From a virus (Duplodnaviria > Caudoviricetes), in the IMG/VR virus record IMGVR_UViG_3300037604_000007, positions 1 through 30,388 of that record: a stretch of 30,388 nt of DNA; one strand, given 5' to 3'. A model generated the notes under the pieces. It was not told the origin of the DNA and did no database searches. It was given only the letters and a program-made list of their open reading frames with translations. The translations under genes and the position numbers were made by a program. Each line of letters opens with the position of its first letter. The first letter of the stretch is position 1. Below are positions 4,821 through 30,388 of the stretch, one piece after another.

Positions 4821-4880
4821 CAAAAAAGCACCCCCCCCTATCAAAAAATAAAAAATAGTTTCTAGGGGGGGTAGGAAAAC
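4821..4880. repeat. C8-TATCAAAAA...TTTCTA-G-run-TA element, copy 1
   Basis: Aligns with 19447-19505; intergenic; the C-run can pair with the G-run. Confidence 0.75.
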
Positions 4881-27480: not shown

Positions 27481-28031
27481 TTTATCTTGTTTATTAAGTC
27501 AGAGTAGTTCTTTTCAAAAAGTGAATTTACACTACTCTGTAATGTTACAAAGGTAGTGAAAAAATATATCTTTTCGTAAGGCAAATTCTCGTAGTATTCC
27601 CACTTTGATTTGTCCCCTTGTGCAAGTGAATCAACCAAGTTATAAATACCAAATTGATTGAGTCTTTTTGCACCACTCATTTCCATTGCAATCTGTTTAT
27701 TAGCATCAACAAATGAATCTAATTTGGATTCACGTTCCCTTGACAATTCCAACTTCTGAATGATGTGATTAATCAATCCAAATAACGTATTTACTTTAAG
27801 AAATGGAATCAGAAACATTGGAATTCTAAACACCATTTTTAATGCGATACAAATGTCAACAAAATCACCTGATGACATTAACCGCCTTAAATAGTCAAAG
27901 TCTTTCAATTTAAACTGAAACACTTCTTTTGCTTTAAAGATAAACCTATCCTTTGGCTTTACCAGTGTCAAATATTCAAACGCTTGAATCTGATCTTCTT
28001 CCGATAATTTCAATAACTTGTATAACCTCAT
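27477..28031 (-). CDS. Hypothetical protein, possible tail assembly chaperone
   Basis: FG.Y..VD.LA.GD..K.E....LPY pattern; follows terL. Confidence 0.5.
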   Translation of the reverse strand: MRLYKLLKLSEEDQIQAFEYLTLVKPKDRFIFKAKEVFQFKLKDFDYLRRLMSSGDFVDICIALKMVFRIPMFLIPFLKVNTLFGLINHIIQKLELSRERESKLDSFVDANKQIAMEMSGAKRLNQFGIYNLVDSLAQGDKSKWEYYENLPYEKIYFFTTFVTLQSSVNSLFEKNYSDLINKIK

Positions 28032-29369
28032 AATCTTAACCCTGAAAAACCTTTATTTACTAATTCAAAATAATATCGCATCATAATCGAATCCCAATCA
28101 TCAGGAGACCTTCCAATTAATTCCTTCACCTTTTCCTTTGGCAACAACTTAACCTTTCCATCTTTGTCCATCTCAACCAATTTCACCGCTTCCATTTCCT
28201 CACTTATCAAATCAATTATTTGCTTATCTCTGCAAATCTCTCCAACCTCTTTGTTGACAATTTTCAACGCCATCTTATGTGAACATTGATTTTTCAAATT
28301 ATCGTAATTCTCTCCATTCAATGCTTTGGAATTATTTACAAATCCTTTGCATCTTAGAATATCAATAAGTCCACCACCAACACCATCTTCATCTGCAACA
28401 ACTCTTGACCTACTTACACCATATTCAGCCATTAAATTCCTAACCCTATCTGCAAGTTCAGTGATTGTGTTTTTATCAATTGCAATCCTTTTGATGCATA
28501 ACCAACCTTTCCAAACTCGAATGACTGATTTGTCCTTTCCTTTTCTTGCTACGTCCACCGTTAAATAGACTTCTTTTTCTTCACTTAAATGTACCGGATT
28601 AAAATAGTCAACAATAGAATCAAAATCAATCAAGGCACTTGGGTCATCGTCATACTCCCAATTCCCAAAATACAACCTTTGTTTACTATTCTTATCCAAA
28701 CTCAACAGTGATTCAAGGTAAGACTCAGGAAGATGTGGATTGTCAGTTGGTAATGCTTGGATAAACACCTTGCCTTTTGGAAGTGTTCCATCTTTTGACT
28801 TCTTATAAAATTCCTTGTAAGTCCAATTTTTAGCTGGATTGCAAGAACCTAATACCTTTGGAATGATTCCAAATTGATTAAGTTTATATCTGCACCTCGA
28901 TAAGACAATCTGCCAAGCCTTGTGGACAACCTGATTGCATTCATCTATAAATGCACCACAGATTTCAAGTGAACCAAGTGAATCAAAATTGGGGTCAGAT
29001 GGATAAAGAAATAAATCCTTCAATAATATCTCACTCCCATTATTCCACTTGATAACATTGGATTGCGCATTGTATGTGAACTGGTCACCCAAATTAAGCA
29101 AGGATGTTAATTCAAAAAATGTGTTTAAAGTTGTTTCTTTGAGTGCCTTTAATTTAGACCTACCCATTAACCACCTCGAACCCTCGTAAGTTTGGCAATT
29201 TTCAATAAGCCATAAACACCCTAAGGCTGACTTACCTCCACCCGCTGCACCAATTTTCACCCCCCCTTTCATTATAAAAGGGGGGTTAACAACCTCCGTA
29301 TAAAACCTCCTTTGTCTCGCTATCTTTTAGGAAGTATACGGCATTTTCTTGTTTAATTAATAATTTCAT
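28028..29369 (-). CDS. terL: Terminase large subunit, split by a 43-nt coding gap (29249-29291)
   Basis: 5' part MKLLIKQENAVYFLKDSETKEVLYGG (29369-29292) plus 3' part AAGGGKS...FIDEC...CNP...DVARKGKD...SPD..D; joining them restores LYGGAAGGGKS. Confidence 0.88.
29249..29291 (-). other. 43-nt insert in the terL Walker A motif: stop codon plus hairpin between matched GGT codons
   Basis: mRNA reads GGU|UGUUAA-CCCCCCUUUU-AUAAU-GAAAGGGGGG-GUGAAAAUU-GGU|GCA. Confidence 0.85.
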
Positions 29370-29402: not shown

Positions 29403-29687
29403 TTATTCAGGTTTCACGCCATTTCCTAGTATTACATTAACAGATTGCATTTTCTCGCCGTCTGTGGTGTGGTCTATTCTTTCCGTAGGTCTTCCAAGGT
29501 AATACTCCAGAAATAGCTTTATCGCTTGCATATCTCCTTTTAAAGCTTCTTGCTTTAATTTTATAATGACAGAGACTACCTCTTCGCTTGTCGATGCTTT
29601 ATCAAGAAGTTTCTTGTATTCGTTTTTCCTTTTATCAACCCCTTTCGCTTTAGTTGAATTACCCCCGTTGTTCTTTCTCTTATCCAT
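29403..29687 (-). CDS. terS: Probable terminase small subunit
   Basis: MDKRKNNGG start, A.KGD.QA..L.L.Y..GRP...ID.TT.GE motif; directly upstream of terL. Confidence 0.75.
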   Translation of the reverse strand: MDKRKNNGGNSTKAKGVDKRKNEYKKLLDKASTSEEVVSVIIKLKQEALKGDMQAIKLFLEYYLGRPTERIDHTTDGEKMQSVNVILGNGVKPE

Positions 29688-29736
29688 ATCAATAGAATTC
29701 AAATTTTGATTTTACTACAAATATAGTAAAAAAATA

Positions 29737-30189
29737 TCACTCTACTATTTCAATCTTATCAACATCTACTCCAAACTTTTCTGATATTTCCTCAATAGTT
29801 ATTTTTGTTTTCAATTTTCGGATGTGTTTCCAATTATCAACACAAAAAGGTTTGTTGTTTTTAAATTTTTTTCCATCCATATTCAAAACACAAACAAATG
29901 GAAATTCTGCTCCCTCTATCTTTGTTATAAATATTCTTTGTTGCTATTCAGTATCATCATCCCTAACCCCAACCAATTCCCCTCTTTCAAATTCTTCTAC
30001 TAGGTGGTTCTTAATTTCACTTGCTGGGTAGTACCACCAGTCTTCTTTAAATCGAACCCCAGATAAATCACTATCTTTATTAGAGAATTCTATTATTCCT
30101 ATTTCCCCGATGTGTTTATCCATATCGCTTATATAATGTGGGCCTTTAAACCTAAAACCTCTCACTCTTTTACCTATTAAATTTTCCAT
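29737..30189 (-). pseudogene. Phage gene of 150 codons interrupted by one in-frame TAG (29944-29946)
   Basis: The frame stays open past the TAG: ...ELVGVRDDDTE*QQRIFITKIEGAEFPFVCV...ITIEEISEKFGVDVDKIEIVE-TGA(29737). Confidence 0.75.
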
Positions 30190-30388
30190 TGTTTTTTATT
30201 TTTTGTTGTATCTATCCCAGTTTTGTTGAACACGTTTTGCGTGTACTAGGTCTATTTCTAATTGTGTTAGTATTTGTTTTTCTCGTAGCTTATCGCAAAG
30301 GCACTCTTCTTTTGTTTGCTCTAAGATAGCTAAAGTTATTAAAACTCCTAAAATAAACGATATTATTATTTTCATTTTATGTTTTTTT
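30172..30388. repeat. Terminal direct repeat, right copy
   Basis: Matches 1-217 with one mismatch. Confidence 0.97.

Follow-up and report, generated by a model that had tools for sequence, protein, structure and literature searches.

A 43-nt gap in the terminase gene of a pond phage belongs to a family of hairpin cassettes that ribosomes probably bypass

Results and Discussion

The only terL gene of the phage is split in its Walker A motif

The window analyzed here is the whole stretch of 30,388 nucleotides that makes up IMG/VR record IMGVR_UViG_3300037604_000007, from a phage sampled in a pond. Within the 30.4-kb, AT-rich record are genes for helicase, primase, portal, head protease, tape measure, and lysis proteins. 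The record probably represents a complete circle, since its ends overlap by 217 nt (positions 1–217 and 30172–30388; 216 identical) and three runs each assembled it as 30.2-kb contigs; the overlap was found despite the linear class and 84% completeness rating of the record. A tblastn search detected a single gene for the large terminase subunit (terL). The nearest cultured TerL proteins are those of Cellulophaga phage phi10:1 (71%) and Flavobacterium phage 11b (60%), both encoded by genes that are uninterrupted at the site described below. Based on these relatives and the presence of an SD-like motif upstream of only 1 of 25 genes, the host is likely a member of the Bacteroidota.

The terL gene lies downstream of a putative small subunit gene, in the position where relatives encode an Sf6-like or gp3-like terS (Table 1). 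Its first part is contained in a short frame (ORF1, 29369–29286) that runs for 26 codons through GGU and then reads UGU and UAA; the encoded peptide is the opening peptide of uninterrupted relatives. The second part resumes in the +1 frame. A PDB sequence search with an uninterrupted TerL relative gave no match.

Table 1. Features of the interrupted terL locus
Feature	Position	Strand	Basis
Putative terminase small subunit, directly upstream of terL	29403–29702	−	Position; phrog_38011, function unknown, no Pfam match
terL part 1: 26 codons, AUG to take-off codon; KQ motif and first two glycines of the Walker A region	29292–29369	−	
Predicted 5' stem-loop in terL coding sequence, 13 bp, ending just ahead of the take-off codon	29296–29341	−	Folding
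Inferred take-off codon GGU (Gly26)	29292–29294	−	Sequence; fixed 5-nt offset to hairpin across the family
Non-coding gap, 43 nt: UGU, UAA, hairpin, A/U spacer, landing GGU	29249–29291	−	Sequence; one of 48 family members
UAA, second codon past take-off, ends ORF1; last A is the first stem base	29286–29288	−	Sequence
Gap hairpin, 11 bp, C-run/G-run core, 6-nt loop holding AUG 29272	29259–29286	−	MFE fold
A/U-rich spacer, 7 nt, ahead of the landing codon	29252–29258	−	Sequence
Inferred landing codon GGU	29249–29251	−	Triplet just before homology to uninterrupted TerL resumes
terL part 2: remaining Walker A, ATPase and nuclease domains, open to natural stop	28028–29248	−	phrog_2, E 5e-30; Pfam Terminase_3

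An initial reading of this DNA, made from its letters alone (hereafter the sequence-only reading), had described terL as broken in its Walker A motif by a 43-nt gap between GGU codons, and we confirmed the sequence, frames, and coordinates of this interruption. Its claim that removing exactly 43 nt restores the motif also held: among deletions of 30–59 nt, only that length worked, in five equivalent placements, and the resulting motif is that of uninterrupted relatives. The insert itself, which that reading had proposed verifying across 29240–29300, is spanned without difference by contigs of runs X1, X2, and X3 (depth 27–62) and X4 (depth 5.4); X1–X3 may each be the source of the record, and X4 is not so marked. 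Contigs of run X12 cover 29055–29285 only, and those of X5, X6, and X9 do not reach the insert. The 43-nt insert in the only terL gene is real.

Some structural details required revision. The gap does fold into a hairpin, with 11 bp (29286–29276 paired with 29269–29259; −18.9 kcal/mol) rather than the 10 bp first described; its z-score against dinucleotide shuffles was −2.4, with 4 of 200 shuffles folding equally well. The AUG at 29272 lies within this hairpin as claimed, but in the loop rather than the stem. The SD-like GGGGUG ahead of the landing codon is likewise present, but this G-run is the 3' arm of the hairpin, and an SD role is doubtful because SD-like motifs are so rare in this phage and Bacteroidetes ribosomes are reported not to recognize them (PMC7797042). 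The UGU codon between take-off codon and stop, noted as a departure from T4 gene 60, was confirmed at the +1 position; UGU is used 3.2 times per 1000 codons in the genes of this phage. We rejected a transcription terminator as an explanation of the gap hairpin, given that no U-tract follows it on either strand. A second C-run/G-run hairpin (about −19 kcal/mol) lies at 4833–4870 in AT-rich, apparently intergenic sequence upstream of the primase gene; it does not sit in a broken gene and is possibly an origin or terminator element.

The sequence-only reading overlooked a second structure, a stem in the coding sequence 5' of the gap. Positions 29341–29329 pair with 29311–29296 (−13.5 kcal/mol), with pair probabilities mostly of 0.82–0.88 and z-scores of −2.9 against dinucleotide shuffles and −2.8 against synonymous recoding. 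This stem is among the weaker ones of the family described below. The same region of the closest TerL relative (L001), which is 96% identical and uninterrupted, reaches −5.4 kcal/mol and forms no stem.

Related cassettes interrupt several families of essential phage genes

We searched for comparable inserts in related genes. Of the best 80 viral TerL relatives, 75 are uninterrupted, with a fixed spacing between the KQ motif and Walker A, and five (about 6%) carry an insert. Two hairpin-blind scans, which required nothing but 25–54 additional bases separating the Tyr-Gly codons from the GKS motif, returned 18 loci with the same anatomy in 18 of 18; five of them are on the same contigs as the five carriers above. 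No locus was found in a scan for 1–24 extra bases after TAT in Walker A. A metagenome scan anchored on the G-run gave 51 loci, of which 23 were in TerL (19 long cassettes and four of another, 8-nt kind) and the 28 non-TerL matches were left out. The G-run pattern matched four times in GTDB, never in TerL, and hence revealed no host-linked prophage. Four scans using the ends of the hairpin itself yielded at least 277 matches, most of them unrelated; at least 179 were non-redundant, at least 114 had a strong hairpin, and 40 were curated as cassettes. By eye, no split domain was recognized in 26 further matches with long frames on both sides, among the matches listed.

The curated set comprises 48 distinct cassettes (at least 48 overall) of 37–45 nt. 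They interrupt TerL-A (29), PBSX-type TerL-B (10), TerL-C (1), Terminase_1-type TerL (2), and PolB (6). Outside TerL-A, insertion sites are the Walker A motif of PBSX-type TerL, a third TerL type, and a position before Walker B of Terminase_1-type TerL; the PolB cassettes occupy three codons around motif B on contigs of 78–204 kb. All three frames are represented (29, 12, and 7 cassettes). The positions where coding resumes were set by Walker A spacing, uninterrupted homologues, and cross-checks of the PolB loci, rather than by codon matching. The sequence-only reading had suggested looking in terL genes of related phages for inserts with matched codons and a compensated hairpin; the 48 related cassettes, in TerL and PolB genes, have mostly synonymous flanking codons and covarying hairpins.

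In a quick tree of 103 TerL rows, inserts were scattered and the starred branches force at least eight gains or losses; the uninterrupted rows are the 80 nearest relatives only, and insert-only clades may be a sampling effect. No cassette was found by blastn in cultured phages, and phi10:1, 11b, FPSV-S2, NatCom_3357, and two huge-phage polB genes are uninterrupted at the site. The viability of cassette carriers is suggested by their recurrence across metagenomes.

In four loci from the metagenome scan (L100, L101, L126, and L131), the Walker A motif of TerL holds a gap of 8 nt that starts with UGA and is bounded by GGU on one side and GGC or GGU on the other. Their 5' coding stem is strong (−22 to −27 kcal/mol), and they lack a gap hairpin. 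Given how similar the gap bases are to the long cassette's 3' tail, these gaps may be deletion derivatives that hop by means of the stop codon and the 5' stem.

Two stems and their spacing are conserved

What stays invariant among the cassettes is a pair of stems and the way they are spaced. In 46 of 48 cassettes, the gap stem begins 5 nt past the take-off codon, and the spacer on its 3' side measures 4–9 nt and is composed largely of A or U (267 of 316 bases; 84%). Four C-G pairs of the stem are near-invariant, and all 48 cassettes retain a U+4:A pair across an A × purine mismatch. The closing pair covaries (A-U in 25, G-C in 13, and U-A in 9 of 48), with a 5/5/5 split in the 16 hairpin-blind cassettes, where it was not imposed by the search patterns.

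For the 5' stem, we folded the 60 nt ending at the take-off codon and calculated z-scores against synonymous recoding. Insert alleles of TerL-A had a median of −21.7 kcal/mol and z of −4.6, with 25 of 27 below z −2, compared to −9.2 kcal/mol and −0.3 in uninterrupted TerL-A alleles, with 9 of 69 below that value (p about 1e-12). Different 5' stems occur in all five protein families and end 0–5 nt before the end of the take-off codon; none above background was detected in L006, L033, and L178. There was no barrier stem 3' of the landing codon (−11.1 versus −10.2 kcal/mol for insert and uninterrupted alleles; p = 0.31). The 12th residue after the KQ start is Ser in 76% of TerL-A insert alleles, whereas uninterrupted alleles vary (Lys being commonest at 34%). 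This preference is apparently due to codon pairing in the 5' stem, such that RNA structure shapes the protein.

Landing triplets match take-off codons at their first two positions

In 43 of 48 cassettes, the landing triplet encodes the same residue as the take-off codon, but the two are identical in only 11. Mismatches at codon positions 1, 2, and 3 numbered 2, 3, and 37, respectively, in contrast to 47, 48, and 32 for the control triplet just before the landing site. The hairpin-blind cassettes behaved similarly, with 15 of 16 landings synonymous and two identical. Since cassettes at one site are related, we also counted site groups, of which 8 of 11 matched by modal codon (permutation p = 2e-5). 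The matched residue varies by site, i.e., Gly, Ala, Ser, Leu, or Cys. A target-site duplication in decay would not be expected to spare positions 1 and 2 so selectively. Many of the third-position differences (e.g., GCC/GCA and CUU/CUA) need two-out-of-three pairing; gene 60 mutants are reported to land in the P site with the third base unpaired (bioRxiv 2024.12.09.627546).

By inspection, a C-to-U change accounts for four of the five non-synonymous landings (GCU/GUA, GCG/GUA, GCC/GUU, and CGG/UGA), and an anticodon G could still pair there. In the last of these, in a TerL gene (L248:901–940), a UGA landing triplet thus lies opposite a CGG take-off codon. The fifth, UAU/AAC in PolB (L178:901–940), pairs poorly and lacks a 5' stem, and this cassette is possibly decaying or misassembled. 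Loci L094, L106, L107, L108, L306, L200, and L217, from separate lineages, have a GUA or GUU landing opposite an Ala take-off codon. They provide a natural test: the residue would be Ala if ribosomes hop and Val if nucleic acids are joined.

The codon following take-off showed no comparable constraint. Sixteen different triplets occupy this position in the 48 cassettes, with UUU and GUU commonest, and a stop directly follows take-off in three. The second codon is a stop in 36 of 48 cassettes; among the 16 hairpin-blind ones, this holds for only 9. The suggestion that a stop or hungry codon triggers the hop is therefore not upheld as a general rule, as the +1 codon is variable and often abundant. 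We likewise dropped take-off at the +1 Cys codon of this phage, given the unconstrained +1 codon and the lack of an in-frame Cys triplet before the resume codon.

Inserts are associated with HNH nuclease genes

With Pfam, HNH_3 genes were detected in the terS–terL interval of nine insert loci and NUMOD-type genes close to three others, compared to none among 106 upstream ORFs of 61 uninterrupted loci. With a local HNH profile, built from nine of the insert loci, hits within 800 nt upstream were obtained for 10 of 24 insert alleles and 0 of 72 uninterrupted alleles (p = 2e-7), leaving 14 insert alleles without HNH. This profile found nothing over the whole record of the present phage, which has no HNH gene between the putative terS and terL. 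For the PolB cassettes, the 800 nt upstream revealed no nuclease. In one locus (L090:1447–1785), a NUMOD4-type gene lies downstream of the insert-bearing terL, in addition to an HNH remnant upstream.

The HNH association points to a selfish-element origin, rather than to the possible limiting of TerL levels suggested by the sequence-only reading, and mirrors that of MobA with gene 60, where the insert is described as protecting against the nuclease (bioRxiv 10.1101/2022.08.31.505936). By our model, the insert would have spread with an HNH homing nuclease gene located between terS and terL. The nuclease would cut intact Walker A sequences, and the insert would disrupt this target. The present phage would then have lost the nuclease and kept the insert.

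The gap is probably read by ribosome hopping

The proposal of the sequence-only reading that ribosomes hop between the matched codons is supported by comparison, i.e., by the 48 cassettes, their synonymous flanks, covarying hairpins, and 5' stems, and the closed frames detailed below. From these sequence comparisons, we consider it probable that the 43-nt gap is read by programmed translational bypass of an insert that protects against a homing nuclease. The gap hairpin, positioned 5 nt past take-off, would pause the ribosome during decoding of the take-off codon and its transfer to the P site. With the preceding codon still in the P site, the first hairpin base stands 11 nt away from it, a spacing at which the dnaX and HIV hairpins are described as blocking A-site binding or translocation (PMC7282821). 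This pause is our proposed trigger of take-off, since the A site usually holds neither a stop nor an unused codon. Peptidyl-tRNA-Gly would leave GGU 29294–29292, cross the gap, and re-pair at GGU 29251–29249, yielding full-length TerL. The 5' coding stem would zip up as the mRNA exits the ribosome and thereby pull the ribosome forward, as in the gene 60 model in which 5' stem pairing is the motor (PMC5009743). The tRNA would scan the A/U spacer and land on the first pairable triplet, chiefly through positions 1 and 2; the G-run may double as a mini-SD. Ribosomes that do not hop would stop at UAA and release a 27-residue peptide.

We lean slightly toward a broader model, in which the cassette is a portable, stop-independent module. 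A hairpin cassette could enter after almost any codon of an essential phage gene, and Bacteroidota ribosomes would hop by RNA structure alone once a local 5' stem evolves. Such modules would serve homing nucleases in place of an intron, without splicing. They would have entered four or more terminase families as well as a huge-phage DNA polymerase, and in a shrunken form of 8 nt, hopping at a stop, the 5' stem may be the sole driver.

Alternative explanations

The gap could instead be removed from the RNA as a micro-intron, cut by a trans-acting nuclease and ligase (or a trans ribozyme) that recognizes two adjacent hairpins. Introns and inteins are common in motifs of the kind hit by the inserts, the two conserved stems flank the 5' junction at a fixed distance, and a protein could bind at the C/G core together with the invariant U-A pair and the A × purine mismatch. 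We nevertheless regard RNA removal as unlikely. The junctions show no base conservation from site to site, the distance on the 3' side ranges over several nucleotides, and splicing has no need for an insert-end triplet that codes for the same residue as the last exon codon. Group I and group II introns in particular were rejected. Group I introns are bounded by an exon U and an intron G, and group II introns have their own ends; none of the five junction placements fits either, the gap is just 43 nt long, and there is no Rfam core, the best Rfam match (E 0.83) being far below gathering scores.

It is very unlikely that the parts are not joined at all, with TerL produced from an internal start (AUG 29272, keeping G-x4-GKS) or by a simple +1 frameshift and the 26-residue piece being dispensable or acting in trans. 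In this phage, the resume frame is indeed open through the gap, with both AUG and GUG, and 11 of the 48 cassettes, this one included, lack a resume-frame stop. However, the present phage is the only one of the 48 with an in-frame AUG in the gap; a truncated product from AUG 29272 may be possible for it alone. The other 37 cassettes contain a resume-frame stop, which in 10 cases coincides with the landing site or immediately precedes it. In 29 of 48, the last such stop is followed by no AUG, GUG, or UUG, which excludes reinitiation, read-through, or a one-base frameshift there as a source of the intact motif. All 12 in-frame cassettes contain stops as well. Moreover, the upstream peptide is as conserved as in uninterrupted genes, and at the PolB and Walker B sites the upstream part is longer than 100 residues or catalytic.

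Slippage between direct repeats of 2–3 nt, through which the hairpin would be lost in DNA or skipped by RNA polymerase and a minority of templates would give intact TerL, is highly improbable. Slippage is known to occur at strong palindromes with short repeats on either side; a microhomology of 2 nt would likewise put no constraint on the third base, and uninterrupted alleles adjoin insert alleles on the tree. Against this, identical triplets are a minority, and the repeat always corresponds to codon positions 1–2 in frame in all 11 site groups, a frame partly fixed by the curation of pattern matches. No joined, gap-less form was present in contigs of X1–X4, which drop rare variants. Nor does slippage predict a 5' stem built into synonymous codons.

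Both parts of terL look maintained in the comparisons that follow. None of 29 downstream frames contains a premature stop, and 15 are complete at 402–408 residues. The dN/dS ratio was 0.11 both upstream (21 codons) and downstream of the gap in 44 insert-insert pairs, which may include branches whose history lacks the insert, and 0.14 and 0.15, respectively, in 182 uninterrupted pairs. That the selfish insertion kills terL, leaving dead alleles in phages that persist as defective or helper-dependent elements, is hardly credible: no cultured carrier was found and few of the best 80 relatives carry the insert, but the open frames, low dN/dS, compensated hairpins, 5' stems specific to each site, and a genome that looks complete, with a single terL and a contig depth of 27–62, all speak against it.

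Comparison with known bypass systems

Hopping over a gap, as we propose here, is a very rare way of reading a gene. Long programmed bypass in print comprises T4 gene 60 with its homologues and the Magnusiomyces mitochondria, with Streptomyces phage Hau3 as a candidate. In gene 60, a 50-nt bypass is accompanied by a MobA HNH cassette, and homologues are known (bioRxiv 10.1101/2022.08.31.505936; bioRxiv 10.1101/2024.12.09.627546). The present cassettes resemble gene 60 in having landing codons that match those of take-off (GGU/GGU in this phage) and in the predicted 5' stem-loop in coding sequence. They differ from it in sequence and in host genes, which are four TerL families and PolB rather than a topoisomerase. 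A stop or rare codon directly follows take-off in gene 60, compared to a variable sense codon here (UGU in this phage), and the take-off codon is not part of the gap hairpin's 5' arm but sits where the upstream stem ends on its 3' side. The cassettes lack the forward barrier stem that gene 60 has 3' of landing. Gene 60 has a mini-SD 5–7 nt before landing; the G-run of the cassettes, which may have a similar role, ends 4–9 nt before landing but is a paired hairpin arm, and the likely hosts of cassette phages do not use SD pairing. The adjacent HNH gene is absent from this phage, but lies upstream in the subset of insert alleles described above.

The byps elements of Magnusiomyces capitatus mitochondria are described as inserts of 27–55 nt across several essential genes, akin to miniature mobile elements (PMC5009743; gene 60 preprints above), and share with the cassettes imperfect take-off/landing matches, read as two-out-of-three pairing, and an A/U-rich 3' part. 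They are mitochondrial, have an unused A-site codon as trigger, and are said to be context-independent. In contrast, the cassettes involve bacterial ribosomes, no unused codon (16 different +1 triplets), a site-specific 5' stem, and an HNH link. By these comparisons, the cassettes appear to work like gene 60 and to spread like byps, while departing from both in the tests that define them.

The Hau3 terminase candidates are similar in that non-coding blocks lie in conserved TerL junctions with surrounding RNA structure and a hop has been proposed (PMC10732093). However, the Hau3 blocks are described as 7–10 nt long, led by a developmentally controlled UUA, and proposed to be regulatory (PMC10732093), whereas the 48 cassettes span 37–45 nt, never have UUA at +1, and are unrelated to them in sequence. 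The 8-nt, stop-led gaps of L100, L101, L126, and L131 are nearer to Hau3 in size. A 29-nt hop reported in a Prevotella loescheii adhesin involves a Bacteroidota host and proved hard to reproduce in E. coli, which calls for caution in the design of reporters; according to the review, it is a single chromosomal case that was never followed up (PMC5009743).

The mostly open-access literature found on bypassing with terminase, polymerase, byps, or HNH covers gene 60 homologues, Hau3, and reviews, but not the cassette family. Our analysis adds a single sequence family shared by four TerL types and PolB, together with codon statistics for each position and controls that compare insert with uninterrupted alleles. 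If our reading is correct, the cassettes would represent a third bypass family, in unrelated essential genes and apparently without a take-off stop or SD pairing, and hopping would be a recurrent answer of bacterial ribosomes to selfish insertions. With the 48 natural variants and their near-identical uninterrupted alleles, it becomes directly testable whether the 5' stem is the driver, a disputed point, and by what rules P-site re-pairing proceeds. As a practical matter, gene callers cut terL and polB short in cassette-bearing phages.
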